This document shows positions 2,840-49,169 of a stretch of 64,000 bases of DNA, one piece after another. The translations under genes were made by a program, and so were the position numbers. The notes under the pieces were generated by a model. That model saw nothing but the letters and a program-made list of their open reading frames with translations, had not been told where the DNA came from and ran no database searches. Source of the DNA: an uncultured Bacteroidales bacterium (GTDB lineage: Bacteria > Bacteroidota > Bacteroidia > Bacteroidales > UBA11471); contig CANQQA010000003.1 of the NCBI GenBank assembly GCA_947625885.1, forward strand, positions 64,726 to 128,725. Direction: 5' to 3'. How positions within the stretch are numbered: the stretch's first letter is position 1; every line of letters starts with the position of its first letter.

Positions 2840-3129
2840 TATTTATCGTTTTTAAGCATTTTACCACGTCCAAGCAACAACCATTCAGCCGATACGCCAA
2901 AGTCCGTGCAGATGCCCGCCAACGCATCAATATCAATCATTTTATATGTCATTTCATTAAATGGCTTTCCCAAGTCATTCTTTATACGTGAATACTTTGT
3001 TCGGTTTAATTTGTGGGCTTCACAAAAACCCTTCAAACCGTTCATCTTACCCAAAGATATTGCCATTTCCAAGGCTTCAAAAAATCGGCGCTGGATTTCA
3101 ATTGCTCGTGGATTGATGGATTTTTTCAT
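2839..3129 (-). CDS. HTH DNA-binding protein (XRE-like), possible excision or immunity regulator
   Basis: 96 aa with the C-terminal GVSAEWLLLGRGKM signature typical of XRE-type HTH proteins. Its stop overlaps the integrase start. Confidence 0.55.
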   Translation of the reverse strand: MKKSINPRAIEIQRRFFEALEMAISLGKMNGLKGFCEAHKLNRTKYSRIKNDLGKPFNEMTYKMIDIDALAGICTDFGVSAEWLLLGRGKMLKNDK

Positions 3130-3575
3130 TGGATTATTCTTTTGACTTTTATTGTTGATGATTGAAGTGGAGTTCGTCCCTTAATATCAAAAGTTGCACG
3201 ATGCAAACCATCATTTATTTCATTGTCAAATTCAACAGAAATATACAAATTCCACCCGCGTTCTTCTTCAACATATATCTGTTGCGATTCGGCAGAATAA
3301 GACCAGACGCCTTTGTGCAAAATTTCCTTTTCACCGCTTTCATCAATAGTATATTGTGCATATTGATTAGAGGCGTCAAATTCATAATACATATTATAAC
3401 CCGTGTTGGATATATCTGTAAAATAATTATCGCTATTAAGATATGCGTATTCAAGCCAAGTTCCCACAATCGTACTTAATTTAATTGGCGGTTCTTCTTC
3501 GTTTGATTTAGAACAACTTGATAATGATAATGCAAATGCGCATATCAATAATACGTTACGAATCATCTTTTCCAT
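3126..3575 (-). CDS. Lipoprotein (prophage moron candidate)
   Basis: Signal peptide plus lipobox, MEKMIRNVLLICAFALSLSSCSK. 149 aa, in the lysogeny-expressed minus-strand block. Confidence 0.7.
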   Translation of the reverse strand: MEKMIRNVLLICAFALSLSSCSKSNEEEPPIKLSTIVGTWLEYAYLNSDNYFTDISNTGYNMYYEFDASNQYAQYTIDESGEKEILHKGVWSYSAESQQIYVEEERGWNLYISVEFDNEINDGLHRATFDIKGRTPLQSSTIKVKRIIQ

Positions 3576-3754
3576 TTTTTCATCTTTTCTTGATATTCAA
3601 CAATCATTTTATCGAACAGGGCTTTATTTACAACGGCGCATTCTTCTCCTTTCAGGCTTGCCAATTCGAGTTCGTCAAAAATTTCTTCGGGCATAACTGA
3701 ATAATAAGATGCGATTCCGTAATAGTCATTGACATTGATTTTTATCGTTTCCAT
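3563..3754 (-). CDS. Hypothetical protein
   Basis: 63-aa ORF packed between the lipoprotein and repressor genes on the same strand. No recognisable motif. Confidence 0.4.
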   Translation of the reverse strand: METIKINVNDYYGIASYYSVMPEEIFDELELASLKGEECAVVNKALFDKMIVEYQEKMKKWKR

Positions 3755-4139
3755 TGTATTTCTCTTTGGTTAAATTTCCGATAATTTCCAACAATTTGTC
3801 GATGTGTTCTTGGGCTTTTGCCAACGACGCTTCTTTCATTGATAGAATTTCCAATAACTTATTCATATCGGTTGGGTTCACTGTTACGTTGTTGCCGTTG
3901 ATATTGTTTCCATTTATGTTTGTTTGTTCGCCACCACCTGCATACCGCTGGGGTTTTAACATCAAATCGCGCAAAATTACGTGTTTTGATTGCGGAATCG
4001 TTGAGCCGGATTCCCAATTTTGAATTGTTCGTGGGTGAACGCCAACCATTTCGGCAAGCTGTTCTTGGGTAATGCCTAATTTTTCACGAATTTTCTTTAT
4101 ATCGAAATCGTTCATAATCAACGAATTGTTTGTTTTCAA
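3726..4139 (-). CDS. XRE-family repressor (CI-like)
   Basis: HTH IREKLGITQEQLAEMVGVHPRTIQNWESG. Divergent from the early plus-strand operon. The C-terminal half is a coiled coil. An alternative start MNDFD lies at 4115. Confidence 0.8.
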   Translation of the reverse strand: MKTNNSLIMNDFDIKKIREKLGITQEQLAEMVGVHPRTIQNWESGSTIPQSKHVILRDLMLKPQRYAGGGEQTNINGNNINGNNVTVNPTDMNKLLEILSMKEASLAKAQEHIDKLLEIIGNLTKEKYNGNDKNQCQ

Positions 4140-4317
4140 TAAAATTTAACACGCAAAATTACGCGAAAACACACAATATGCCGTATATTTGCGCTTGTAA
4201 AGTTTGGCAATGCAAAATTAAAGCACAAACAAACTTTTGCAAATAGCGAAATTACGTCATTTTATTGAAAATGCAAAAAACGATACGAAAAATTGACATT
4301 TTTAATTCTTAAAAAAT
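4140..4317. promoter_or_regulatory. Divergent immunity switch region with repeated boxes
   Basis: 178-bp AT-rich intergenic region between the divergent repressor and early operon. GCAAAATTA occurs at 4153-4161 and 4212-4220, and GCGAAATTA at 4246-4254. GCAATGCAAAAT is at 4207-4218. A TAtaTTTG (Bacteroides -7 type TAnnTTTG) is at 4184-4191 on the plus strand. Confidence 0.45.
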
Positions 4318-10027: not shown

Positions 10028-10044
10028 ATGTATCACTATAAAAC
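10027..10044 (+). promoter_or_regulatory. Recurrent phage motif copy 1 (aatgtatcactataaaac)
   Basis: Identical to the copy at 19982-19999. It overlaps the stop of the upstream gene and ends 7 nt before the ATG at 10052. Confidence 0.6.
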
Positions 10045-10051
10045 TTTTATT

Positions 10052-10483
10052 ATGGAAAAACAACTTGGACATGAATATCAAAATCTTGCACAACGTGAAG
10101 CATTCCTTAAAGACAATTGTGATGCTTGCGAACAAAAAGGTTATATGAAACCATACACCATGCAAGAATTGCAAGGACACAAAGAGAAACTTGCCAATGT
10201 TTCGATTGAGATTGCCGAAATAGAAGCAGAAAAGAAACGGATTGAATCCGACTTCAAGGGGCGCTTGAAACCCTTGAAAGAATCAAGGGCGATAATGGTT
10301 TCAAACATCAAGTCAAAGGCTGAATACGTGAACGAAGTGTGTTACCGCTTCACAGACCAAGAAACCAAGGAAACCGGGTATTACAACAAAGAGGGCATTT
10401 TGGTTGAATGCCGTCCGGCAACGGCTGATGAACTACAACCAAACATCTTTTCGATGGCGAGAAAGACAGGAACAAACGATTAA
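10052..10483 (+). CDS. Hypothetical coiled-coil protein
   Basis: The ORF track starts at 10028 (MYHYKTFIM...), but that ATG lies inside the recurrent motif. The ATG at 10052 (MEKQLGH) is preferred. Confidence 0.5.
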   Translation: MEKQLGHEYQNLAQREAFLKDNCDACEQKGYMKPYTMQELQGHKEKLANVSIEIAEIEAEKKRIESDFKGRLKPLKESRAIMVSNIKSKAEYVNEVCYRFTDQETKETGYYNKEGILVECRPATADELQPNIFSMARKTGTND

Positions 10484-14391: not shown

Positions 14392-14409
14392 AATGTGTTA
14401 TTATAAAAC
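14392..14409 (+). promoter_or_regulatory. Recurrent phage motif copy (aatgtgttattataaaac)
   Basis: Variant of the 18-nt motif, ending 9 nt before the ATG at 14419. Its internal ATG opens a 9-codon mini-ORF (MCYYKTEMR) whose TGA overlaps the downstream ATG. Confidence 0.5.
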
Positions 14410-14418
14410 AGAAATGCG

Positions 14419-16858: not shown

Positions 16859-17422
16859 ATGAAACCAATTGATTTTTCACAATCCACAAAAGTGTTGCAA
16901 AAACCGTCCACAATGACTGACAGTGAATGTCAATCATTGCACGTATGGAATGATGGCAAACAATGTGTATCATGTTGGAAAGCATCATTCAAGGAAAGAT
17001 TGAATATTTTATTTACGGGGATAGTTTGGTTGGGCGTGTTTTCTGGCAAGACACAACCGCCCGTTTTCGTGTCTGGCGAAGAAGTCTTTGAAAATTCGAC
17101 GTTAAAAGCCCGAATTTTGACGTTTGTTGCCGAAATTAAGGAGAAGTTCATTGACGTATGGGAAAATGTCAAGGAAGCCGCAAAACAGACCGACAAACGC
17201 AAATATTTTATTGTCGGTTTGACAATATCCATTGTTTTGGGGTCTTTGCTTGGTTGGCTGTTCGGATTTACAATCGGAATACTTGCCAAAATTTTCAAGG
17301 ATTTGTTGGATTCAAAAGGAAATGAAATGGTTGAGGTGATGGACATTGTATTTATGATGTTCGGTGCAGCTTGCGCAATTCCATTTTCTATTCTGTTTTA
17401 TTATTTCTTGATTTTGCGATGA
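16859..17422 (+). CDS. Membrane protein
   Basis: The MKPIDF start is preferred over the track start at 16766. C-terminal hydrophobic helices are YFIVGLTISIVLGSLLGWLFGFTIGILA and FMMFGAACAIPFSILFYYFLIL. The stop overlaps the next start (ATGA). Confidence 0.5.
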   Translation: MKPIDFSQSTKVLQKPSTMTDSECQSLHVWNDGKQCVSCWKASFKERLNILFTGIVWLGVFSGKTQPPVFVSGEEVFENSTLKARILTFVAEIKEKFIDVWENVKEAAKQTDKRKYFIVGLTISIVLGSLLGWLFGFTIGILAKIFKDLLDSKGNEMVEVMDIVFMMFGAACAIPFSILFYYFLILR

Positions 17423-17964
17423 AAAAGGTTGTTGAGGTAAACATTGATTCGTTGATTCCCGATGATAAAAATTTCAATAGGGGAACGGAGTATGGCGACC
17501 ACCTTATGGACGAATCATTGCGAAAATTCGGGCTTGGGCGTTCGGTTTTACTTGATAAGAACGACCGCATTATTGCCGGAAACAAAACCGTCGAAAAGGC
17601 TGCCGAACTTGGATTTGAAAATGCCATTATTGTAGAAACGGACGGAAAGACCCTTGTTGCGGTTCGGCGAAATGACATCGACTTGGATTCGGCAAAAGGT
17701 CGGGAATTTGCACTTGCTGACAATGCAACAAGCAAAGCGAACATTTGCTTTGACACCGACTTGATAATGCAAGAAGCAGAAATATACGACTTTGACCCCG
17801 AAGATTGGGGCGTTACAATGGAACAACCCGAAGAAGAACAACCCGAAGATGGCAAAAAGGTGATTGACACACGATTGATTGTTGAGTGTAGCGATGTTTC
17901 CAAATTGTCGTTGTTATACAGCGAGTTACAAGATAGGGGCTTTAAGTGTGAGTTGAAGAAATAA
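17419..17964 (+). CDS. ParB/sulfiredoxin-domain protein
   Basis: VVEVNIDSLIPDDKNFNRG...SVLLDKNDRIIAGNKTVEKAAELG is a ParB N-terminal-type motif. It has the typical position upstream of terS. Confidence 0.65.
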   Translation: MKKVVEVNIDSLIPDDKNFNRGTEYGDHLMDESLRKFGLGRSVLLDKNDRIIAGNKTVEKAAELGFENAIIVETDGKTLVAVRRNDIDLDSAKGREFALADNATSKANICFDTDLIMQEAEIYDFDPEDWGVTMEQPEEEQPEDGKKVIDTRLIVECSDVSKLSLLYSELQDRGFKCELKK

Positions 17965-19982: not shown

Positions 19983-19999
19983 ATGTATCACTATAAAAC
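19982..19999 (+). promoter_or_regulatory. Recurrent phage motif copy (aatgtatcactataaaac)
   Basis: Identical to copy 1. It overlaps the terL stop and ends 7 nt before the ATG at 20007. Confidence 0.6.
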
Positions 20000-20006
20000 A
20001 GGTATT

Positions 20007-21925: not shown

Positions 21926-24328
21926 ATGGCAAAGAAAAGGCAGAAAACAACGCGGTTTTCGATTCAATCATACGATTCCGCACATTACAGGCAAACGGAG
22001 CAATACACCAAAGCTGTTGAAGCCTTATTTGACCGAGCCACCGCCGAAGTTTCAAAGGCAGCGGCAAAAGGCACATACAACCCAGATAAGCCATTTTCTT
22101 TTGATGATTACCCCGGTGTAAAGTCCGTTATGCAAGATGTAACCGAACAACTTGCAAGCAGAATGATAACGGTTATTGAAACGGGTTCAAAAAAACAGTG
22201 GTTGTTCGCTTGCAAGAAGAACGATGGCTTTATTGATTCGATAATGGAAACGTCAAAGTTGAGCAAGGCGATGTTGCAAAAGATGCAAGACCGAAACTTG
22301 GACGCATTACAGACATTCCAGCGGCGCAAGGTCGATGGAATGAACCTTTCGCAAAGGGTTTGGAAATATGTCGGTCAATACAAAGAGCAACTGGAATCTG
22401 CCCTTGATGTTGGATTGGGCGATGGTCGAAGTGCCGACCAACTTTCACGTGATGTCCGGAAAAACCTCAAAGAACCGAACCGATTATTTCGCCGTGTGCG
22501 AGATAAACGCGGAAACCTTGTATTGTCGAAAGCCGCAAAAGCCTTTCACCCCGGACAGGGAGTTTACCGTTCGTCGTACAAGAATGCAATGCGTTTGACG
22601 CGCTCCGAAATAAACATGGCATATAGAGAAAGCGACTTTTTGCGCTGGCAATCACTTGATTTCGTTGTTGGCTTTGAGATACACCGAAGTAATCACGAAC
22701 CATTGTGTAAATGCGACATTTGCCAACAATTGGTCGGTCGTTACCCAAAGACATTCAAGTTCAAAGGGTGGCACCCGCAATGTATGTGTTATGCCGTGCC
22801 TATATTGATGGACGAAGAAACCTTTGATGAAAATGAATTGGGCAACCTCAAAGCGGCATTGCGAGGAACGCAATACAAGAAATTGGAAGCGAAGAATATA
22901 GTTTCCGATGTGCCAGATGGATTCAAAGCATGGGTAAAAGACCATATAGATGCGCAAAAGAAATGGGGCTCGACGCCTTATTTTATTAAAGACAATTTCA
23001 AAAATGGCAAGTTGTCCGATGGATTGAAGATTGCATTGCCAACCATTGAATCACCGATTGACCCGATACAACAACAACTTGATGCGTTAAATGTGCAAAT
23101 TGTCCAAGCAAGGCAACAAGCCGCCAAGTGGGGATTATCCGTACAACTCACAATGCTTAACAAGTACGTTTCAGAAAGGGATATTGCTGGCGTGCGTATA
23201 AGAATAGCAACCATTCAATCAAAAGCGAAGATGATGGAACAAGCCGATGCGGATATTCGCCGCAAGTGTTCCGAATGGGGGTTGTCCACATACATTCTCG
23301 ATGAAGCAATGCGCAATCCAGATACAAAGAACATTTTGGAAAAAATGACTGAATTGGAAAATAGGTGCTTCAACGCTGAAAAAGAATACAATCAATTCAT
23401 TGCAAATGCCACAAATGCAATACAGGAAGCGCGAAAATACAAAATTGATGTTTTGGAAATGTTTAATTATGTTGCCACAATTACGAGCGATAAGCGCGAA
23501 TGGGTGATGGGCAAAAGTTCGTATAAACAGGCATTGCAAGATTTGTTGGATAAGATACGCAAAAGTGGTGGTGGCGATTCACCACACAAAGCAATACGAA
23601 CATCATACACAGCAAGTTCCGAACTTGACGACACTTTCAAGGTTATCAACTCCGAGTTTACCACCGAAAAGTGGTTTGAACACGGCGATTGTGTTTTGTC
23701 CGCAACGAAGAAAAGTGATGTAAACGGTTATACGTATATGGACGGGCGAATTTTCTTGAAAACTGAAAGACTTGAATACGTAAAATCCGCAATGGCTAAA
23801 ATCGGAAGTGGCAAATCAAATGAAATCACCTTTGAAGAAGCTGATGCAATGGCAACATTTTGGCACGAAATCACACACAACCGTAATGTTCCGGGCAATA
23901 TGAAAACAACAAAAGCGCAAACCAAAGTTATGGAAATGATGAACGAGTTTGTGGCACGAAAGACATTGCCGGAATTTTACGCAAAATTGGGTTGTGCCAA
24001 TACGCCACACCCGGAGTTCATCAACAATCGAAATTCAACGGGTTACAACCGCCGTGTGCTTATGTATGATTTTGTCATTTCAAAACTTGGTCTTGACCCG
24101 GCAAAAGTTCTTGCATCGGCGCGAAAGTATCTTTTTAGATTGGATTACACACAACAGGAAACAACCGCAATACAAGCATTGTTGGACGGTGGAATGGATA
24201 AGTTCATTCGTTTAGATGGTAAACCGATAGGAAAAGCCCAAATGAAAAAGATTGTTGCTTTATGCCGTAGTGGTGCAGGTGAGCAAACAATTGAAAACTA
24301 TATGCGAAAAGAGGGCATTATAAAATAA
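21926..24328 (+). CDS. MuF/SPP1 gp7-like head protein with a long C-terminal extension carrying HExxH
   Basis: MuF-type region RSEINMAYRESDFLRWQ...CKCDICQQL...WHPQCMCYAVPI lies in the first ~300 aa. A coiled coil follows, then FWHEITHN (HEITH at 23864-23878) with a downstream EMMNEF. Confidence 0.75.
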   Translation: MAKKRQKTTRFSIQSYDSAHYRQTEQYTKAVEALFDRATAEVSKAAAKGTYNPDKPFSFDDYPGVKSVMQDVTEQLASRMITVIETGSKKQWLFACKKNDGFIDSIMETSKLSKAMLQKMQDRNLDALQTFQRRKVDGMNLSQRVWKYVGQYKEQLESALDVGLGDGRSADQLSRDVRKNLKEPNRLFRRVRDKRGNLVLSKAAKAFHPGQGVYRSSYKNAMRLTRSEINMAYRESDFLRWQSLDFVVGFEIHRSNHEPLCKCDICQQLVGRYPKTFKFKGWHPQCMCYAVPILMDEETFDENELGNLKAALRGTQYKKLEAKNIVSDVPDGFKAWVKDHIDAQKKWGSTPYFIKDNFKNGKLSDGLKIALPTIESPIDPIQQQLDALNVQIVQARQQAAKWGLSVQLTMLNKYVSERDIAGVRIRIATIQSKAKMMEQADADIRRKCSEWGLSTYILDEAMRNPDTKNILEKMTELENRCFNAEKEYNQFIANATNAIQEARKYKIDVLEMFNYVATITSDKREWVMGKSSYKQALQDLLDKIRKSGGGDSPHKAIRTSYTASSELDDTFKVINSEFTTEKWFEHGDCVLSATKKSDVNGYTYMDGRIFLKTERLEYVKSAMAKIGSGKSNEITFEEADAMATFWHEITHNRNVPGNMKTTKAQTKVMEMMNEFVARKTLPEFYAKLGCANTPHPEFINNRNSTGYNRRVLMYDFVISKLGLDPAKVLASARKYLFRLDYTQQETTAIQALLDGGMDKFIRLDGKPIGKAQMKKIVALCRSGAGEQTIENYMRKEGIIK

Positions 24329-24329
24329 T

Positions 24330-24359
24330 AAAGTGGGGGGCTTCACGCCCCCCCACTTT
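24330..24359. terminator. Bidirectional hairpin terminator between convergent genes
   Basis: aaagtgggggg (24330-24340) pairs with ccccccacttt (24349-24359) around an 8-nt loop. It sits between the + gene ending at 24328 and the - gene ending at 24358. Confidence 0.7.
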
Positions 24360-24588
24360 ATTCGTTGTTCTCCGCTTCAAGTTCTTTTTTGTATTGCTTT
24401 TCGACGGCTTGCAACAAATCTTTGTTGTTAGTCAATTCCGCAAACTCAATGAGTACGTGAGCATTATAAAGCGGATATTCTTTCAAATCGCGAAAGAAAT
24501 CTTCTTTCGACACGACCAAATCTGCAATTATTTGTTCATCGTTGCAGAAATCAAAGATGGTCTTTTCTTTCAAATTGGTGTAGTCCAT
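24358..24588 (-). CDS. Hypothetical protein (inverted cassette)
   Basis: 76-aa acidic ORF, last gene of the minus-strand cassette. Confidence 0.45.
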   Translation of the reverse strand: MDYTNLKEKTIFDFCNDEQIIADLVVSKEDFFRDLKEYPLYNAHVLIEFAELTNNKDLLQAVEKQYKKELEAENNE

Positions 24589-24594
24589 AATTGT

Positions 24595-24822
24595 TTATTT
24601 TGATGGTTTACGATTCGTTTTCTTTCGGTGGATTGTTCCCCTGTAAATGATGCACTTGTTGTTGCGATATGGCTTTGATTCGGTTATTCCATACGCCCAC
24701 AATCGAGATTTCGACACGCCCAATTCAAGATGATTGAATGTGTCGAAAATCGCGGCAATAGAACCGAAATAATGGTGGTTGTCGTCGCCGAAGCAAACGT
24801 GATATATGGTTGTTCCGTTCAT
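24595..24822 (-). CDS. Hypothetical protein (inverted cassette)
   Basis: 75-aa ORF with a basic C-terminus, tightly packed. Confidence 0.45.
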   Translation of the reverse strand: MNGTTIYHVCFGDDNHHYFGSIAAIFDTFNHLELGVSKSRLWAYGITESKPYRNNKCIIYRGTIHRKKTNRKPSK

Positions 24823-24890
24823 ATTACAATTGCATTTCTTATGGCATCAATTGGTGATTTTGCTGCATTTGGCGAAATCTACCCCTTTGG

Positions 24891-25163
24891 TCATAACACA
24901 TATATTTTTCGTTTACTCATTTCATCGCGGAATTTACTATACGCCGCGTTGTATGATTCGCCGCTGGATTCTGCCAACATGATAAACCCAGCTCGACCGT
25001 CGTTTTTGATGATGATTTTTCCGATAACTCTGACTGATTCAAAATATCCGCCGGCACACTTCATTACCGCTTCTATCTGTTCGCTCGCTGCAAATCTGTT
25101 TTCCGCGTTTATTGCTACTTTTATCTGATTTTTCATATTGCTGCCTCTTTCTTTATTTTCCAT
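24891..25163 (-). CDS. Hypothetical protein (inverted cassette)
   Basis: The MENKERG start at 25163 is preferred because it lies 5 nt after the upstream stop. The track start is 25193. Confidence 0.4.
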   Translation of the reverse strand: MENKERGSNMKNQIKVAINAENRFAASEQIEAVMKCAGGYFESVRVIGKIIIKNDGRAGFIMLAESSGESYNAAYSKFRDEMSKRKIYVL

Positions 25164-25167
25164 TGTC

Positions 25168-25719
25168 TTATATATTAAAATCAAACCATTCACGGGGAGA
25201 ATTGAACGCAGCCTTTTTCACTTGCCGATAAAAAGCCTTATTCAATTTGCGTATCCTTGCCAAACATTCGTGTGGATTCCAACGGAAGTCTGGCATCATT
25301 TCGTTGTTCGCGGCATAAATACCGCCTTGTTTTGGTTCAAAATGTCCAAAGGCAACCAAGTTCCCATCTTTGATGAAAACAACTTCCTTGATGTGTTTGT
25401 TGAGCTTGTGGCGGTATGTTAAGGACGTGCAAGTGTTGTAATACTCAACAATCTTGTGTTGCCGTTCCATCGCTTCTTGCAGCTTGGTTGCCTTATTCTT
25501 TCGGAAGTCCCACATATTTTTGGCAACTTGATGCCGAAGTTCCGCTACATTGATAGGTTCGCTTCCGATTGCCATATCATACGGAAATGTGCCGTTGGCA
25601 AACATTCTTACAGCACGAACAAAGTTCTCTTTGTCCACCACTTTGTCGTGAAGTTCATTCACGAAATCAACACGTAAACCATACTTGGCTGCGAGTGCTT
25701 CAAAATTCATCTTTTCCAT
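25168..25719 (-). CDS. Hypothetical protein (inverted cassette)
   Basis: 183-aa ORF. No motif recognised. Confidence 0.5.
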   Translation of the reverse strand: MEKMNFEALAAKYGLRVDFVNELHDKVVDKENFVRAVRMFANGTFPYDMAIGSEPINVAELRHQVAKNMWDFRKNKATKLQEAMERQHKIVEYYNTCTSLTYRHKLNKHIKEVVFIKDGNLVAFGHFEPKQGGIYAANNEMMPDFRWNPHECLARIRKLNKAFYRQVKKAAFNSPREWFDFNI

Positions 25720-25734
25720 GCAAATGTAACAAAT

Positions 25735-25989
25735 TTATTTAATATAACTATTATTTTTTTGTTGTTTAGTTTTATTCGGTGTGATTAAAAGTGTATGGGC
25801 TGCCAAACTTAATGCACGGGCATTGAAGTCGTGCTTCAAGGCAATTTCTTCTTGCCCGTCATTGTCGGCTTTTGTTGATGTCAAAAGTTCCATGTCCATT
25901 ATCCGTGCTATTGTCTTGAACATTCGTTTTGATGCTTCATACAATCGGCGATTATATTCGTCGTCAGTCATTGTGTTGATTGCTTTCAT
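25735..25989 (-). CDS. Hypothetical protein (inverted cassette)
   Basis: 84-aa ORF. No motif recognised. Confidence 0.45.
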   Translation of the reverse strand: MKAINTMTDDEYNRRLYEASKRMFKTIARIMDMELLTSTKADNDGQEEIALKHDFNARALSLAAHTLLITPNKTKQQKNNSYIK

Positions 25990-25998
25990 ATTCGCTGT

Positions 25999-26952
25999 TT
26001 AATTGTTATTTATACCAATAATATACAAGCAATTCTTTTCCGGAAGCAGTTTGTTTACACCATCAAGGGTTGCGCCTGTTGTCAAGATGTCATCAAACAC
26101 AATGATGTTATGTTCTTTAATATCAACGTGCAATGCGAATTGTGGGTTGATGCGTTGTCTTGTCTTTGCGGTTATTGCATCATTGTAAAATGGGATTCCC
26201 AGCTTTTTAGCAATCACCAAACAAACGCTTTCGGCAAAGTTCGTTTCCTTGTGGCGGCGTTTGGGCGTCGTGAGCAACGCCCAATCATCATTGTGGCGCA
26301 ATCCAACCACACGGCGAATAACATTCAAGGCGGCATCTGCAAACAATCCAACATTGGAGAAATCCGCCTTAATGGTGGATAATGGATAACCTTGTTCGCT
26401 TTTCTTGAAGCAGGAAATGAAAGAAAAATCACGTTTTGGGTGCCAGCCGATGCAATCTTTCAAATCGCACACGCTTTCTTGGGAGTTGGCGGCAGAGTTC
26501 CACCCTGCACGTTTCTTTTCTTGCGGTTGTTCCTCAAATTGCGGTTCCTCAAATTGCGAAATGTCAATTGCCCATTCTTGGAGTTCTACGGCGTCCCACC
26601 CATCAAGAAGTGCTTTGTAATCCCAATCACCGAAATCCCCATTGTCCTTGATGATATAGTTTCGGAGTTTTTCAACTGGCGTTTCCTTTGGGATAATGAT
26701 GCAAGGAACATCATCGAATCCAAGCCGCCTCAATGCTTGTAAACGCATATTTCCGCCGACAGTGATATACTTGCCATCTGCAATCGGATAAACGAGCAGC
26801 CCACGCAATTGCAACATTTCGGGGTCTTGTTTAATGCTTTCAACCAGCTTATCAAGTTTTGCGGGGTTTGTGATACGCGGATTCGGGGGCAAGCCCGGAA
26901 CTTGCCCCGTGTTGTTCTCAATCCGCATGATTGGAATGTTTGTTGTTATCAT
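25999..26952 (-). CDS. ParB-N domain fused to a ComF-like phosphoribosyltransferase domain
   Basis: N-terminus LLVYPIADGKYITVGGNMRLQALRRLGFDDVPCIII is ParB/Srx type. The C-terminal PRPP-binding loop is HNIIVFDDILTTGATLDGV. An acidic linker lies between them. Confidence 0.75.
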   Translation of the reverse strand: MITTNIPIMRIENNTGQVPGLPPNPRITNPAKLDKLVESIKQDPEMLQLRGLLVYPIADGKYITVGGNMRLQALRRLGFDDVPCIIIPKETPVEKLRNYIIKDNGDFGDWDYKALLDGWDAVELQEWAIDISQFEEPQFEEQPQEKKRAGWNSAANSQESVCDLKDCIGWHPKRDFSFISCFKKSEQGYPLSTIKADFSNVGLFADAALNVIRRVVGLRHNDDWALLTTPKRRHKETNFAESVCLVIAKKLGIPFYNDAITAKTRQRINPQFALHVDIKEHNIIVFDDILTTGATLDGVNKLLPEKNCLYIIGINNN

Positions 26953-27293
26953 ATCGAAATAATTAAAGTTTTTACGCCTTTCTTGTTTGCATAATCAATG
27001 GTGTATTTCGTGCCTTTTGATGTGCCATTCCAAAATGCAACGACCATATCGGAATTATCCACAATTTCACGGTTGCGTATGAATGTTGCCCCACGCCCGT
27101 TCTTTGCATAATCTGGGCGAAATTCAATGAGTTCAAGCTCATGTTGCCTTGCATATTGTGCAGCGAGAGAATCAATGCCCTTTGCCCCGCCGGAAATAAT
27201 TGCATCACACGAATGCAAGGTTATGTGCCTTTCAAGTTCTTCTGCAAAAGAAATATTGCCAAGTTCACGTGAACCAACGATTGCGATTTTCAT
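26949..27293 (-). CDS. DprA-like SLOG domain protein (DUF2493-like)
   Basis: MKIAIVGSRE...IISGGAKGIDSLAAQYA...GATFIRNREIV...VVAFWNGTSKGT matches the stand-alone SLOG/DUF2493 pattern. It overlaps the ParB-PRTase start. Confidence 0.7.
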   Translation of the reverse strand: MKIAIVGSRELGNISFAEELERHITLHSCDAIISGGAKGIDSLAAQYARQHELELIEFRPDYAKNGRGATFIRNREIVDNSDMVVAFWNGTSKGTKYTIDYANKKGVKTLIISI

Positions 27294-27301
27294 TGTTGTG
27301 C

Positions 27302-27319
27302 GTTTTATAGTAATACATT
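27302..27319 (-). promoter_or_regulatory. Recurrent phage motif copy (aatgtattactataaaac on the minus strand)
   Basis: Ends 8 nt upstream of the minus-strand ATG at 27293 (SLOG gene). Confidence 0.55.
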
Positions 27320-27327
27320 TTTTTTGA

Positions 27328-27597
27328 CTAAAATAATTTATATGTAGTTGTGAATGAACATTCTTCTATATCACCACGTGTTTCATACTTACCCGTTTCC
27401 ACAAGTTTTGTAATGGCTGCAATGGGGATTAATACGCCCAATCCTTTACCTTTGGATTGGAACACCCATACAGATGTTCCGGATTTAACCATGTAACCGA
27501 TTTTGAAATAATCGTTTGTCCCATTAAACCCATTATAATATGAAATATTCTTACCCATAATGGCTTGTTTGATATATTGCATTGTAATTGCTGCCAT
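27328..27597 (-). CDS. Hypothetical protein (inverted cassette)
   Basis: 89-aa ORF. Confidence 0.45.
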   Translation of the reverse strand: MAAITMQYIKQAIMGKNISYYNGFNGTNDYFKIGYMVKSGTSVWVFQSKGKGLGVLIPIAAITKLVETGKYETRGDIEECSFTTTYKLF

Positions 27598-27608
27598 CGT
27601 AGAACGTT

Positions 27609-27944
27609 TTAATCATTTGAAATTGGTTTGGTTGGAATGCTGTTCAAAGCCGTAATGATGTCATTTTTATATGACCACCTTTTGGCTAAAATAATGCCGC
27701 GAAAGGCATTTGATTTGACAATGCCCCATTTCTCCACAACTGAAAATTCGTTGTTGTCAAAAGGGTTGTCATATACTCTCCATTTAGCGAATCTTTCAAA
27801 GTGTGTTACCCATACAGATGAGCCGGAAAGGCGGTTTGAATGCCTTTGCCCGCATAAACGTATTGATGATGTCAATTCAACACACAGTTTTGTTGGTGTT
27901 GATTCTATGATTTTGAATTTTTGGATTATTGCTTGTTTCTTCAT
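27609..27944 (-). CDS. Hypothetical protein (inverted cassette)
   Basis: 111-aa ORF. Confidence 0.45.
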   Translation of the reverse strand: MKKQAIIQKFKIIESTPTKLCVELTSSIRLCGQRHSNRLSGSSVWVTHFERFAKWRVYDNPFDNNEFSVVEKWGIVKSNAFRGIILAKRWSYKNDIITALNSIPTKPISND

Positions 27945-27992
27945 TGTTGCGATTTTTTTTGATTGGTTGTTTCGTTTTTAGAATGCCCAACA

Positions 27993-28220
27993 TTATTCCC
28001 AGTATGCGACTGCGTAGACCTCTTTATTGCTATCTTCATCAATCACGTATATAGCGTATGTTTCTCCGCTCCAACTTTCAAGCTCTCTCGGACACGGGAA
28101 AGCCGAACAATCGGCGCTTCGGTATTCTATGCGGCAATTGCCGCCATAATAATTTACAAAATCGTTTACCATTTCTTCTGCCTCGCTGTATGTGTAGGCA
28201 CTTTCTCTTTTTGTTTTCAT
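27993..28220 (-). CDS. Hypothetical protein (first gene of the inverted cassette)
   Basis: 75-aa acidic ORF. Confidence 0.45.
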   Translation of the reverse strand: MKTKRESAYTYSEAEEMVNDFVNYYGGNCRIEYRSADCSAFPCPRELESWSGETYAIYVIDEDSNKEVYAVAYWE

Positions 28221-28254
28221 TTTTCTTTTTGTTTTAAGCTGTTATTGTTAGCGT

Positions 28255-28272
28255 GTTTTATAGTAACACACC
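28255..28272 (-). promoter_or_regulatory. Recurrent phage motif copy (ggtgtgttactataaaac on the minus strand)
   Basis: Ends 34 nt upstream of the minus-strand ATG at 28220. Confidence 0.5.
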
Positions 28273-28376
28273 GCAAATATAATAGTTATATTTAATATAA
28301 CAAACTTTTTCGGCAAAAAATGCACTTGCAATGCAAAATGTTGATAAGTTAAGCACAAATAGACTTGCATATATCA

Positions 28377-28394
28377 TTTGTATCACTATAAAAC
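28377..28394 (+). promoter_or_regulatory. Recurrent phage motif copy (tttgtatcactataaaac)
   Basis: Ends 44 nt upstream of the ATG at 28439. It lies between the candidate -33 and -7 boxes. Confidence 0.55.
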
Positions 28395-28438
28395 ATTATA
28401 TTTTTGTGATGATTTGTTGAACATAAATTTTCAAAAAA

Positions 28439-29131
28439 ATGAAAGAAACGATTTTGGCACTACTGATTGCGAAGTTTTCAGGCGTGCGAAAGGACGGATT
28501 GGCGGTGCTGGCACGTTCCCTTGCGTTACAGTGCGCAACCGAAGATGATGCGAAAGCCCTTGTTGAAAAAATCACCGATGCGCAAGTGAATGAATACGTC
28601 AAGGACTATCGCACCGAAGTGGATAAAGAAGTGTCCAACAGTAACAAGACATTTGAATCGAACTTGCGAAAGAAGTACAACTTCGTTGAGCGGCAAACGG
28701 AACCCGGCAACGAGCCACAACGCGAAGATATGGACAGCGTCCGCAAGATTGTGAAAGAGGCTGTTGCGGAAGCGGTAACGCCACTTCAAGAAAGATTGTC
28801 AAGTTACGAACAAGGCAACATTGAGAAAACAAGGCTTCAAACATTGAACGAAAAATTGGCTGATTGCAAGGACGAAACTTTCAAGGCGCAAACATTGAAA
28901 GATTTTTCCCGCATGAAGTTCGATACGGACAATGACTTCAATGAATACTTGAACGAAAAGGTTGCGGACATTGCAACGGCAAATCAAAATGTTGCCAATG
29001 CAAAATTGAGTAATTCTGGCGGAATACCGCTGTTTTCACAAAAAGAGGAAAGCGGTGTGTCCAAAGGTGTTGCCGATTTCTTGGCAAACCAAAAAACCGA
29101 TAACAACCCGTTATCTGGTAAAGAACTCTAA
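28439..29131 (+). CDS. Probable capsid scaffolding protein
   Basis: 230 aa, acidic and coiled-coil rich, two genes upstream of the major capsid gene. Confidence 0.5.
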   Translation: MKETILALLIAKFSGVRKDGLAVLARSLALQCATEDDAKALVEKITDAQVNEYVKDYRTEVDKEVSNSNKTFESNLRKKYNFVERQTEPGNEPQREDMDSVRKIVKEAVAEAVTPLQERLSSYEQGNIEKTRLQTLNEKLADCKDETFKAQTLKDFSRMKFDTDNDFNEYLNEKVADIATANQNVANAKLSNSGGIPLFSQKEESGVSKGVADFLANQKTDNNPLSGKEL

Positions 29132-37793: not shown

Positions 37794-37811
37794 TGTGTTT
37801 CACTATAAAAC
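37794..37811 (+). promoter_or_regulatory. Recurrent phage motif copy (tgtgtttcactataaaac)
   Basis: Lies between the tape measure stop and the next gene, ending 6 nt before the ATG at 37818. Confidence 0.55.
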
Positions 37812-37817
37812 GGAAAT

Positions 37818-49025: not shown

Positions 49026-49046
49026 TTCGTGTACGAAATCGTGTAC
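49026..49046. repeat. Right copy of the 21-bp direct repeat, candidate integrase arm-type sites
   Basis: Identical to 1533-1553. A third degenerate unit aatcgtgtt lies at 49005-49013. Confidence 0.5.
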
Positions 49047-49079: not shown

Positions 49080-49093
49080 TGCGGAGTGAGGGG
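49080..49093. repeat. attR core
   Basis: tgcggagtgagggg is identical to 1402-1415 and overlaps the tRNA-Ser 3' end. Confidence 0.65.
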
Positions 49094-49169
49094 GATTCGA
49101 ACCCCCGAACCGGTTTTGCCGATTACACGCTTTCCAGGCGTGCCTCTTCAACCGCTCGAGCATCACTCC
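49082..49169 (-). tRNA. tRNA-Ser (anticodon GGA)
   Basis: The minus strand reads GGAGTGA..CACGC-CTGGAAA-GCGTG..long variable arm..GGGGG-TTCGAAT-CCCCC-TCACTCC-G. It has a 7-bp acceptor stem, an anticodon loop with GGA, a class II variable arm, a canonical T-loop and no encoded CCA. Confidence 0.9.

Follow-up and report, generated by a model that had tools for sequence, protein, structure and literature searches.

Variable regions, or 'genomic islands', with many small hypothetical genes have been noted in phages of Porphyromonas gingivalis (Matrishin et al., 2023; PMC10367356). In the P2 prophage hotspot, a DprA protein paired with a phosphoribosyltransferase (PRTase) is a proven defence system that protects against T7 and lambda (PMC9122126). 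In the ShosTA system, ShosT combines a Rossmann hydrolase with a PRTase domain in 424 aa, and ShosA combines a SAM domain with a DprA fold in 328 aa (PMC12961424). ComFC-like PRTase domains have also been described as fusions to MuF, and ParB-like domains have been described beside virion genes (Iyer et al., 2017; PMC5512222). Here we analysed a 64,000-nucleotide stretch of Bacteroidales DNA (the window), in which ten tiled minus-strand ORFs (c1-c10, 24358-28220) lie between a MuF minor-head gene and a scaffold gene. With a probability of about 0.75, we read this block as a variable accessory (cargo) island of a Bacteroidales siphovirus prophage family related to Porphyromonas phage005, assembled as a mosaic of modules. 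The host of the phage is probably Alistipes-like. The block combines a probable toxin-immunity gene with a travelling enzyme pair, two semi-conserved genes and several orphans, and it belongs to a class that is already known, the phage accessory hotspot. The block and its two flanking genes are as follows.

21926-24328, plus strand: MuF-like minor head protein, 800 aa (PHROG minor-head/head-morphogenesis matches and a Bxa MuF-ART family match)
24358-24588, minus strand: c1, 76 aa, acidic (pI 4.5), probable immunity protein, from its co-occurrence with the MuF C-terminal domain and its type VI secretion system (T6SS) homology
24595-24822, minus strand: c2, 75 aa, basic, semi-core island gene (PHROG 10608)
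24891-25193 (24891-25163 from the likely ATG start), minus strand: c3, 81-100 aa, orphan ORF in a variable slot between c2 and c4
25168-25719, minus strand: c4, 183 aa, basic, semi-core island gene
25735-25989, minus strand: c5, 84 aa, orphan ORF (90% cluster of three members)
25999-26952, minus strand: c6, 317 aa, with a ParB/Noc-like N-terminal domain, a disordered linker and a ComF-like PRTase domain (Pfam, AlphaFold, Foldseek)
26949-27293, minus strand: c7, 114 aa, minimal SLOG (YAcAr/DprA-like Rossmann) protein (Pfam YAcAr 6.5e-12, above cut-off; DNA_processg_A 1.3e-8; PHROG 289)
27328-27597, minus strand: c8, 89 aa (homologues about 43-52% identical, on the minus strand every time)
27609-27944, minus strand: c9, 111 aa, basic, near-orphan (marginal coding score)
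27993-28220, minus strand: c10, 75 aa, acidic (pI 4.4), orphan and first in the predicted leftward transcription unit (90% cluster of four members)
28439-29131, plus strand: scaffold-position head gene, 230 aa, conserved, right-hand island anchor (60% identity to its positional counterpart in phage005; PHROG 5824)

The ten ORFs listed in the initial annotation are real. In a 3-periodic Markov coding model trained on conserved plus-strand phage genes, the annotated frame scores best of the six for every ORF, even for two with weak scores (c2, -0.03, and c9, 0.007 nats/codon), and public assemblies of the same phage annotate eight of the ten as genes, giving c3 a length of 81 aa. AT skew goes negative over 24-28 kb. 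As had been claimed, the packaging, head and tail genes all lie on the plus strand, in synteny with phage005, with the scaffold and capsid genes running from 28439 onward. Eight products had been described as lacking a recognisable motif, and Pfam matches are indeed absent for eight of the ten; c6 matches below cut-off, c7 above it, and c2 finds its match in PHROG.

Using the scaffold-position gene as bait, we recovered 101 related loci. Each of the 62 related phage loci that have both anchor genes holds a block at this site, mostly on the minus strand (433 of 493 ORFs), and these blocks comprise about 150 protein families, among them antirepressors, PAPS-reductase-like proteins, HTH proteins, a DUF4942 protein and an ADP-ribosylglycohydrolase. 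The block had been called inverted; its minus orientation stands, but a recent event is not implied, since the leftward orientation is common to all relatives examined. Among the 62 loci, c2 (by tblastn, on the minus strand every time) and c4 each occur in 53, c8 in 17, c1 in 16, c6 and c7 together in eight, and c9 in one (L027, 77% identity), with c3, c5 and c10 having no homologue there. Phage005, though it has the same site and orientation, gave no match to any of the ten ORFs genome-wide at E<=1e-5. The distribution of c6 and c7 is patchy: the closest relatives (scaffold 78-80% identical) lack them, and L061 has them at 93% and 85% identity, though its scaffold is just 66% identical. Rather than a single unit, the island is a mosaic in which at least three parts are distributed independently.

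The block carries its own promoter-like and terminator-like signals.

24327-24362, both strands: terminator-like hairpin, bidirectional, where the MuF and c1 genes converge, with 14-nt arms (24327-24340 and 24349-24362) that are 100% complementary and an 8-nt loop
25720-25757, minus strand: promoter-like segment inside the block and upstream of c4, which duplicates the core of the island promoter and has a -7 box TACATTTG at 25729-25722
27300-27317, minus strand: internal copy of an 18-nt dyad motif that stops 6 nt short of the c7 ATG
28253-28304, minus strand: predicted leftward island promoter, with -33 TTTG (28304-28301) and -7 TATATTTG (28279-28272)
28328-28359, plus strand: composite box GCAATGCAAAAT...AAGCACAAA, also present in the immunity region (4207-4229), within a conserved block of the intergenic alignment
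28379-28406, plus strand: predicted rightward head-operon promoter, with the 18-nt dyad motif (28379-28396) directly upstream of a -7 box TATTTTTG (28399-28406)

The hairpin was rightly described as perfect and bidirectional: its folding energy is -23.4 kcal/mol on one strand (z = -5.9) and -25.3 kcal/mol on the other (z = -6.2), and it is flanked by A/T runs on both sides and appears on both strands in a terminator scan. Most relatives have a differing but equally strong hairpin at the MuF 3' end. At the other end, the 218-bp divergent intergenic region (28221-28438) does hold two divergent copies of the 18-nt motif, which has seven copies in the window against 0.03 expected. The minus-strand copy (28253-28270, three mismatches) immediately follows the leftward -7 box, over the expected transcription start; the plus-strand copy (28379-28396) is exact and lies at about -62 in nearly all relatives. 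A minus-strand TAnnTTTG is found at the place of the leftward promoter in 80 of 88 related loci (background 2.8%) and a plus-strand TAnnTTTG at -60 to -15 of the head operon in 72 of 88 (background 1.6%), and the positions of both -7 boxes and both motif copies are conserved among relatives. By sequence, the island promoters are of the Bacteroidota type (TTTG/TAnnTTTG). The boxes reported as shared with the immunity region were recovered too, the pattern GCAATGCAAAAT-N(2-11)-AAGCACAAA matching at those two places only in the window, with 0 expected.

Within the block, the segment upstream of c4 is a 38-nt direct repeat of 28273-28310 (76% identity), and in 17 of 42 loci a TAnnTTTG lies in the 70 nt preceding c4, mostly within a shared TTGTTATATTAAATAAA...TAnnTTTG element. 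The 18-nt motif lies directly upstream of c7 in L061 and L075 as well, and it also occurs in late structural operons. Because it overlaps each of the divergent promoters and also recurs through the late operons, the island genes nearest the promoter are probably switched together with the structural genes. Thus, of the claim that the block is insulated, the possession of its own signals holds, but independence does not: with an operator-like motif shared with late structural operons, the island looks co-regulated rather than independent.

The left-hand end of the island is tied to its neighbour. The N-terminal ~545 aa of MuF are conserved in relatives, and the C-terminal ~255 aa (23561-24325) form a polymorphic HExxH...E domain with invariant H102, E103, H106, E125 and E129; relatives align just to residues ~375-577 unless their C-terminal domain is of the same type. 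All 15 loci with this domain have c1, compared with none of 34 without it (Fisher 6e-13, a value that overstates the link because related loci are not phylogenetically independent). The strand of c1 varies among loci, but its position is constant, always adjoining the MuF 3' end. T6SS homology gives independent support from sequence: a DUF4280/PAAR-like protein encoded in a T6SS locus shares 63% identity, over its C-terminal half, with the MuF domain, and c1 is 66% identical (E 5e-35) to an 84-aa gene immediately downstream of that effector. Since the close homologues of both are an effector and its downstream gene, c1 is probably the immunity partner of a MuF C-terminal toxin domain.

The c7-c6 pair is a second distinct part. 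The c7 stop and c6 start overlap by 4 nt. In c6, Pfam ParB_N and Pribosyltran both match under cut-off; in Foldseek its AlphaFold model (pLDDT 83) matches Noc/ParB at 7e-7 and H. pylori ComF, the best PRTase match, at 1e-5. ParB-DNA-methyltransferase fusions carry a ParB domain 50-57% identical to the one in c6. Among 36 homologues, conservation is complete at P230, R232-H234 and P270 and reaches at least 90% at K231 and in the DDIxTxGxT loop. A c7 homologue adjoins the c6 homologue in five of seven other, unrelated phage contexts, co-directional or convergent, and the pair there usually lies directly upstream of terS/terL, beside DNA methylase, PAPS-reductase or epimerase genes. This is a mobile pair that occurs in unrelated phages, and its genomic context favours a DNA- or nucleotide-directed role.

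Of the remaining products, c2 belongs to a family of 232 cluster representatives library-wide, mostly small stand-alone proteins of 66-110 aa; searches of Pfam and the PDB gave no relative. For c4, none of 222 homologues carries a Pfam domain or a name, and although its fold is predicted confidently (AlphaFold pLDDT 91), a structure search of the PDB and BFVD found no significant neighbour. For cargo, c2 and c4 are unusually stable, each being present in 53 of the 62 relatives, and they could have a conserved phage function. Five of the ten ORFs lack an informative homologue, and for these five 'cargo' is a label given by exclusion.

How well do other readings account for these data? The initial annotation had proposed one autonomous, insulated cassette, for a function such as anti-defence, DNA protection or superinfection control, gained and lost as a unit. 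The block has clean boundaries, with the hairpin on one side and the divergent promoter on the other, and is on one strand throughout with short gaps. However, in the synteny comparison suggested for scoring its presence or absence as a unit, the genes occur independently in 0 to 53 of the 62 loci and the ten-gene set in none, identical copies being confined to what are essentially assemblies of one and the same phage; c1 follows the MuF C-terminal domain and not the other nine genes, and the block contains an internal promoter copy and an internal 18-nt motif copy. We find a unit cassette scarcely credible. The other part of that proposal, an accessory rather than morphogenetic nature, holds up, as content turns over while the flanking head genes stay conserved. 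A morphogenesis or assembly accessory role on the opposite strand, for c2 and c4 or for the whole block, is very unlikely: it would fit the frequency of c2 and c4 and the c2 homologue that follows MuF even in a distant phage (MuF 40% identical), but both genes are missing from five loci with intact head genes, phage005 forms particles without them (PMC10367356), neither resembles any structural PHROG, Pfam family or solved fold, and small stand-alone members of the c2 family are widespread. It is also improbable that the products are made with the structural genes, packaged in the capsid and injected with the DNA as early-phase effectors, for which P1 Dar/DdrB, T4 Alt and MuF-fused effectors provide parallels. 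The site between head genes, the motif common to late operons, the effector-type domain on the adjoining MuF, the location of P1 DdrB in the head, and the PRTase-MuF fusions and virion-linked ParB-like domains cited above (PMC5512222) speak for it; against it, c6 homologues elsewhere are mostly in a DNA-metabolism module upstream of terminase and not among virion genes, no island product is fused to a structural domain, and content turns over completely among relatives.

Another alternative, possible though in our view doubtful, is that c7-c6 is a DprA-like/PRTase toxin-antitoxin defence of the ShosTA/PsyrTA kind that kills or arrests the lysogen when a competing phage infects, the island being mainly a superinfection-exclusion hotspot like those of P2 and P4. 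Beyond the P2 precedent (PMC9122126), c6 matches the PADLOC models of ShosT (1e-5) and PsyrT, c7 matches those of PsyrA (3e-7) and ShosA (1e-6), the two genes overlap within one operon, and the PRPP loop is conserved in c6, PRPP binding being required for ShosT toxicity (PMC12961424). Yet the likeness is loose. The matches are limited to the PRPP loop in c6 and, in c7, to the first ~50 residues of the SLOG domain; the architectures of ShosT and ShosA are unlike those of c6 (ParB_N and PRTase) and c7 (114-aa SLOG), and no ShosT structure is among the top 50 Foldseek hits of c6. In two of the seven contexts no c7 homologue lies within 7 kb of the c6 homologue, which an unneutralised toxin should not tolerate, and all seven contexts are phage genomes, mostly a replication/modification module beside terminase, not defence islands.

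We thus return to the mosaic island. It would be read leftward, away from the head operon, from a host-type Bacteroidota promoter, its transcript ending at the hairpin shared with MuF, with c4-c1 served by a second promoter copy that lacks the 18-nt motif. Three modules can be proposed: the leftward promoter with c10-c9-c8; the internal 18-nt motif with c7-c6, and possibly c5; and the duplicated promoter core with c4-c3-c2-c1. Within them, c1 would neutralise a zincin-like toxin domain on the MuF C-terminus, the same toxin/immunity pair apparently being in use by a type VI secretion system; c7 may be a SLOG nucleotide- or ssDNA-binding protein and c6 a ParB-tethered, ComF-like PRTase, the pair most likely having DNA or nucleotides as its target while the phage develops, with a part in DNA modification, handling or counter-restriction; c2 and c4 would be semi-conserved yet dispensable proteins, and c3, c5, c8, c9 and c10 cargo with fast turnover. 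Thus, rather than being acquired whole, islands of this phage family may grow by the accretion and exchange of small promoter-led modules.

Ten minus-strand ORFs, c1 to c10, are tiled over 24358-28220 between the 800-aa MuF-like minor head gene (21926-24328) and the gene in the scaffold position (28439-29131), as the initial annotation had described. Under a 3-periodic Markov model fitted to the conserved plus-strand genes, each of the ten has its best score of the six frames in the annotated one, which bears out their coding status, with weak scores for c2 and c9. Long plus-strand ORFs across the block have negative scores in the same model and were rejected as shadow ORFs. AT skew flips sign over the block, 8/10 of the ORFs are called as genes in public assemblies of the same phage (this phage is present on 17-20 contigs), and all ten proteins are soluble. 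Pfam picks out only c6 and c7, in agreement with the earlier statement that eight products have no recognisable motif.

Island ORFs, all on the minus strand, and their occurrence among 62 related loci with both MuF and scaffold genes
24358-24588: c1, small gene adjoining the MuF 3' end; 16/62
24595-24822: c2, 75 aa, with a basic tail; 53/62
24891-25193: c3; 0/62
25168-25719: c4, 183 aa; 53/62
25735-25989: c5; 0/62
25999-26952: c6, 317 aa, ParB/Noc-like and phosphoribosyltransferase (PRTase) domains; 8/62, always together with c7
26949-27293: c7, 114 aa, SLOG protein; 8/62, always together with c6
27328-27597: c8; 17/62
27609-27944: c9; 1/62
27993-28220: c10; 0/62

The prophage in the window is about 47.5 kb long, with a G+C content of about 41% against about 55% in the flanks, and its edges carry the following features.

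1533-1553 and 49026-49046: 21-bp direct repeat TTCGTGTACGAAATCGTGTAC, at both edges of the low-G+C region
1562-2839: integrase gene
49081-49169: tRNA-Ser gene, adjoining the repeat

The repeat is a candidate attachment-site core, beside rather than within the tRNA-Ser gene. Gene order and proteins match those of phage005, a Porphyromonas gingivalis phage (PP754928.1), from the integrase to the lysis genes at 35-84% amino acid identity, and an Alistipes MAG holds a closer relative. This relative, together with the G+C content of the flanks and the type of promoter, suggests an Alistipes-like Bacteroidales host. The window also has a second ParB-like gene (17419-17964), only distantly related to c6, in the usual position just 5' of the small terminase gene; its product is 71% identical to a phage005 protein with the annotation ParB-like partition protein, whose gene has a glucosyltransferase gene after it. 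Also encoded in the window are an HTH repressor (3726-4139) and, next to it, a 149-aa protein (3126-3575).

The block had been interpreted as an inverted unit and as one autonomous cassette. Neither interpretation survived a comparison with 101 related loci, gathered from viral, genome and metagenome collections with the scaffold protein as anchor (the genome-collection scan yielded three loci only, one of them the Alistipes MAG). At every one of the 62 loci with both MuF and scaffold genes, the gap between them (2.3-7.5 kb, counting from where conserved MuF sequence stops) consists largely of minus-strand ORFs; the minus strand carries 433 of the 493 gap ORFs, and the number of families, taken over 63 loci, is about 150. 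At the identical site, phage005 has a 15-gene minus-strand block that encodes an ADP-ribosylglycohydrolase, a regulator, an integrase, an antirepressor, a DUF1566 protein and others, and the phage005 genome contains no match at E<=1e-5 to any of c1 to c10. The minus-strand block is thus ancestral and hypervariable rather than inverted. A search around the block found no flanking or terminal repeats of the sort left by the insertion of a mobile element or by an inversion, only a promoter duplication.

Nor do the ten genes travel as a unit: they are spread independently over the 62 loci, and their occurrence ranges from 0 to 53. Both c2 and c4 are absent from 5/62 loci and are, on this distribution, common yet seemingly dispensable in the lineage. 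The c6/c7 pair is missing from the closest relatives (scaffold 78-80% identical), yet in locus L061, where the scaffold is only 66% identical, c6 is 93% and c7 85% identical, which means that horizontal transfer of the pair has taken place. Among the products of other island versions are Bro-N/KilAC antirepressors, PAPS-reductase-like proteins, an HTH protein and a DUF4942 protein; from our own reading of the sequences, these versions also appear to encode a lipoprotein-like protein, and the N-terminal part of the DUF4942 protein looks methyltransferase-like.

Because genes are distributed independently and about 150 families occupy a fixed site, we interpret the island as a phage accessory hotspot, and the proposal that its function is accessory and not morphogenetic is supported, its content varying between conserved MuF and scaffold genes. 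Judged from these loci, the island is a cargo hotspot or moron island, an already known kind: its position between core genes is fixed, its content varies among similar phages, and it has predicted promoter and terminator signals of its own. The G+C content of the block is 0.38-0.44 against about 0.41 for the phage, so that the atypical composition of morons is not seen here. Morons are known from lambdoid phages. Like the P2/P4 hotspots (Rousset et al. 2022, PMC9122126) and lambdoid morons, the island has a fixed site amid core genes, gene turnover among close relatives, numerous small genes of unknown function, and its own promoter-like and terminator-like signals. Unlike them, it lies inside the head module as a multi-gene leftward operon that diverges from the head promoter, with c2 and c4 as a semi-conserved core and with the same G+C content as the rest of the phage. 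A close precedent is the set of P. gingivalis prophage islands (PMC10367356, PP754928.1), with the genome plan of the window prophage and, in phage005, a minus-strand block of different genes at the identical site. Passages of Matrishin et al. 2023 (PMC10367356) describe variable regions, or 'genomic islands', in P. gingivalis phages, with many small hypothetical genes, lone toxin/antitoxin genes and candidate anti-CRISPRs; these passages do not single out the MuF-scaffold site or analyse its promoters, motif or modules.

The boundaries of the island are as first described. On the MuF side, a perfect hairpin with 14-nt arms (24327-24340 and 24349-24362) is flanked on each side by A and T runs and has a folding energy of about -24 kcal/mol on either strand (z about -6); most relatives have hairpins at the MuF 3' end that differ in sequence and are alike in strength. 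On the scaffold side, the intergenic region is 218 bp long and indeed holds two divergent copies of the 18-nt motif, along with a box otherwise found only in the immunity region. An alignment of this region from 18 phages contains conserved blocks, among them the elements of a leftward island promoter (P_cass) and a rightward head-operon promoter (P_head).

28304-28301, minus strand: -33 TTTG of P_cass
28279-28272, minus strand: -7 box of P_cass, TATATTTG, 21 nt after the TTTG
28270-28253: 18-nt motif copy, directly after the P_cass -7 box and over the expected transcription start
28399-28406, plus strand: -7 box of P_head, TATTTTTG, an invariant TAnnTTTG directly after the other 18-nt motif copy, with TTTG 18 nt upstream
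4207-4229 and 28328-28359: composite box GCAATGCAAAAT-N(2-11)-AAGCACAAA, the first in the intergenic space of the immunity region, the second midway through the divergent promoter region

The housekeeping promoter of Bacteroidota reportedly consists of a -33 TTTG and a -7 TAnnTTTG. Both elements are present here and, taking a spacing of about 19-21 nt as the standard, we judged the promoters to be of this type. Across 88 loci, the -7 boxes stand at the expected places in 72 for P_head (background 1.6%) and in 80 for P_cass (background 2.8%). A sigma-70 promoter scan found 27 sites against 22 expected and is uninformative for this phylum. The composite box occurs at only two places in the window, where it may serve as another site of regulation, separate from the 18-nt motif.

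The 18-nt motif has seven copies in the window against 0.03 expected, and is dyad symmetric, TGT-N11-ACA (TGTATTA-N3-TAATACA in some relatives). Since it lies upstream of the -7 box at one promoter and downstream of it at the other, an operator that would occlude RNA polymerase fits better than an activator site. The other copies are co-oriented with transcription and lie between a stop codon and the next ATG, ending 2-6 nt before it, in both early and late operons.

10029-10046: 18-nt motif copy
14394-14411: 18-nt motif copy
19984-20001: 18-nt motif copy
27300-27317: 18-nt motif copy, ahead of c7
37796-37813: 18-nt motif copy

The segment 16804-16821, in a short gap between genes, is also listed as a copy. 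The listed ORF starts at 10028 and 19983 are probably inside the motif, with the real ATGs at 10052 and 20007. Relatives keep the copies that lie at the terminase/portal junction and behind the tape-measure gene, and the copy ahead of c7 travels with c7-c6 in loci L061 and L075. By analogy, the motif looks like a stoperator-type or late-regulator site. Stoperators are reportedly a feature of cluster A mycobacteriophages; like them, the motif is a short repeat at promoters and in intra-operon gaps, co-oriented with transcription. Unlike them, it is a 17-18 bp dyad, TGT-N11-ACA, in only about 7 copies and in a Bacteroidota phage, and a role as activator site would be just as likely.

A 38-nt copy of the island promoter core (25720-25757, -7 box TACATTTG) lies directly 5' of c4, and a TAnnTTTG is found no more than 70 nt upstream of c4 in 17/42 relatives, mostly within the same shared element. 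From this copy and the motif copy ahead of c7, the island can be divided into three promoter- or motif-led modules (c10-c8, c7-c5 and c4-c1), and recombination at such repeated regulatory segments would be a plausible source of its mosaicism.

One gene of the block has a closer tie to the head protein than to its neighbors. The MuF N-terminal part matches PHROG 115, 7625 and 1657 (minor head/head morphogenesis, E down to 6e-81), with no match to Pfam Phage_Mu_F, and the MuF part also matches the PHROG of Bxa, an ADP-ribosyltransferase of Bacteroides phages. Relatives align with it only to residues ~375-577 unless they have the same C-terminal domain. This domain (residues 546-800, 23561-24325) has an invariant HExxH and downstream glutamates and is zincin-like; no Pfam family was found for it, and a single-sequence search of the PDB gave no match. 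The gene c1 is present in 15/15 loci with this domain and in 0/34 without it (Fisher 6e-13, a value that overstates independence, given the kinship between these loci). Its identity varies in step with that of the domain, and it always adjoins the 3' end of MuF; 12 loci have it on the minus strand, 4 on the plus strand. The same combination occurs at a type VI secretion (T6SS) locus (L106 5001-6469), where, after TssC, two Hcp genes and VgrG, a gene encodes a 391-aa DUF4280 (PAAR-like) protein whose C-terminal half is 63% identical to the MuF domain (E 1e-115). The 84-aa gene immediately 3' of it encodes a product 66% identical to c1 (E 5e-35).

The C-terminal domain is thus swapped among relatives and present in another toxin delivery context, and c1 is its adjacent, co-varying partner. 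Based upon this co-occurrence and the T6SS homologues, the two are predicted to be a polymorphic toxin and its immunity protein, a pair that serves two delivery systems, and c1 should not be counted as island cargo in a functional sense. MuF-fused polymorphic toxins and effectors reportedly have downstream immunity genes. MuF-fused effectors were already known (Iyer et al. 2017, PMC5512222), and the window protein resembles them in its conserved MuF N-terminal domain and swappable C-terminal domains, in the small neighboring gene that co-varies with the C-terminal domain, and in having that domain in common with a second delivery system, a PAAR-like T6SS effector. It differs from known MuF toxins in its zincin-like HExxH...E domain lacking a Pfam family, and in the putative immunity gene, which is convergent at the end of the island operon rather than downstream on the same strand. 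In several of the loci L102-L105, metagenome copies of nearly the same phage, the gene calls split MuF into an overlapping pair (360 aa and 459+ aa), probably owing to a frameshift or to faulty assembly; they also omit c2.

The SLOG protein c7 matches Pfam YAcAr (PF10686) at 45.5 bits against a gathering cut-off of 28.2, and its YAcAr and DNA_processg_A matches span residues 1-63. The c6 model (pLDDT 83) has two domains joined by a disordered linker (residues 133-157), in which a perfect 15-nt tandem duplication (26529-26558) encodes a repeated PQFEE segment. The N-terminal domain resembles Noc/ParB CTP-binding domains (Foldseek E 7e-7 to 1e-5) and has the ParB/Srx fold and a GGNMR motif with G67 and N68 invariant and R70 at least 90% conserved; its Pfam ParB score of 21.1 is below the cut-off of 26.3, and it shares 50-57% identity with the corresponding domain of ParB-DNA-methyltransferase fusions. 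The C-terminal domain resembles PRTases, with H. pylori ComF the best match (Foldseek 1e-5). The aligned family has P230, R232-H234 and P270 in every sequence, and K231 and the PRPP loop (DDIxTxGxT) in at least 90% of them. PDB sequence searches gave only ParB/Srx and generic PRTase matches for c6 (single sequence and family profile) and weak DprA matches for c7 (single sequence).

Homologues of c6, which number about 60 full-length cluster representatives, were examined in seven other phage contexts. A c7 homologue is adjacent in 5/7, co-directional and overlapping in L013 and L017/18 and convergent in L014, L015/16 and L112, and is absent within 7 kb in L111 and L113. The c6 homologue stands directly 5' of terminase genes, amid DNA methylase, PAPS-reductase or epimerase genes, in 5/7 contexts. 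At L112 (6174-8280), in an unrelated phage, it begins at the stop of an NAD-dependent epimerase/dehydratase gene, with a PAPS reductase upstream and the convergent SLOG gene after it; this neighborhood hints at a sugar- or nucleotide-based DNA modification pathway.

Our preferred reading, to which we give a probability of roughly 0.45, is that c7-c6 would be a phage-side enzyme pair directed at DNA or nucleotides, acting in modification, handling or counter-restriction. Next in rank, though rather unlikely, is an abortive-infection pair like ShosTA. ShosTA, PsyrTA (RqlHI) and the DprA+PRTase system of a P2 hotspot, which is a proven defence system (PMC9122126), likewise combine two genes in a prophage variable region, one for a PRTase protein and one for a protein of the DprA/SLOG fold, and PADLOC models for ShosT/PsyrT and ShosA/PsyrA match c6 and c7. 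These matches are confined to the PRPP loop of c6 (residues 267-305) and to the first 50 or so SLOG residues of c7 (residues 2-53), and no ShosT chain is among the top 50 Foldseek matches of c6. The architectures also differ: ShosT is a Rossmann hydrolase fused to a PRTase (424 aa) and ShosA a SAM domain fused to a DprA fold (328 aa) (PMC12961424, PMC11961720). Where ShosT has its hydrolase and PsyrT a RecQ-like helicase, c6 has the ParB/Noc-like fold, and its PRTase is structurally nearest to ComF. Similarly, a full DprA-like antitoxin has SAM and Rossmann domains in ~300 aa, dimerizes and binds RecA, whereas c7 is the SLOG core only, one third the size of ShosA and without its SAM domain. 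Unlike in ShosTA/PsyrTA, moreover, the partner of c6 may not be obligatory, and its usual context is a phage DNA-metabolism module.

The ComF match invites a further comparison. ComFC and DprA (structure 7p0h) reportedly function in natural transformation, where ComFC acts with the SLOG-fold protein DprA on single-stranded DNA. Apart from this structural match, c6 lacks the zinc-finger N-terminus and competence context of ComFC, has a ParB-like N-terminal domain, and is phage-borne. A conserved arginine after the second strand has been noted for ComFC-like and invasive-element PRTases (PMC5512222). A further reading, which we regard as a long shot, is that the ParB-like clamp domain, fused to DNA methyltransferases in sister proteins, would bring the ComF-like PRTase to phage DNA, and that this DNA-tethered enzyme and its SLOG partner would add or edit a phosphoribosyl-type modification on DNA or nucleotide precursors, evading restriction. 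If true, this would be a previously undescribed restriction-evasion route for Bacteroidales phages. In architecture, the ParB-PRTase/SLOG pair is a new variant among PRTase-SLOG pairings.

Searches of all ten proteins with Pfam, PHROGs, NCBIfam and PADLOC left c1, c3, c4, c5, c8, c9 and c10 unmatched, apart from one sub-threshold Pfam match of c4, its only match, which we took as chance. The 222 homologues of c4 include none that is named or has domains; its model (pLDDT 91) has a helical N-terminal half, a long helix, a four-stranded sheet and C-terminal helices, with no significant structural neighbors by Foldseek in the PDB and BFVD. Three local matches of c4 to SAUGI-type uracil-DNA-glycosylase inhibitors (43-105 aligned columns, E 0.45-1.9) were rejected as too weak. 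The c2 protein belongs to PHROG 10608, a broad small-protein family with 232 cluster representatives, and an exhaustive search found no informative fusion and no known relative. A reading of the c2 alignment as a degenerate GIY-YIG/HTH protein is supported by no tool, and its PDB matches in a family-profile search are artefacts from expression tags. No informative homologues were found for c3, c5, c8, c9 and c10.

Taken at the level of the family, the island provides a defined cargo site, with promoters mapped from sequence, in widespread gut and oral Bacteroidales prophages. Because about 150 families pass through it, the site is a good place to find new defence, counter-defence and DNA-modification genes, few of which have been characterised in this phylum. 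Three parts stand out: the MuF/T6SS toxin-immunity pair, the ParB-PRTase/SLOG pair and the stoperator-like motif. The ParB-PRTase/SLOG pair moves between unrelated phages and is a testable lead, and the 18-nt dyad motif, which connects the island with the late operons, may act in Bacteroidota phages as a switch resembling stoperators. Finally, since a head protein and a T6SS effector appear to share a toxin/immunity pair, the prophage may confer on its host immunity to a neighbor's T6SS toxin.
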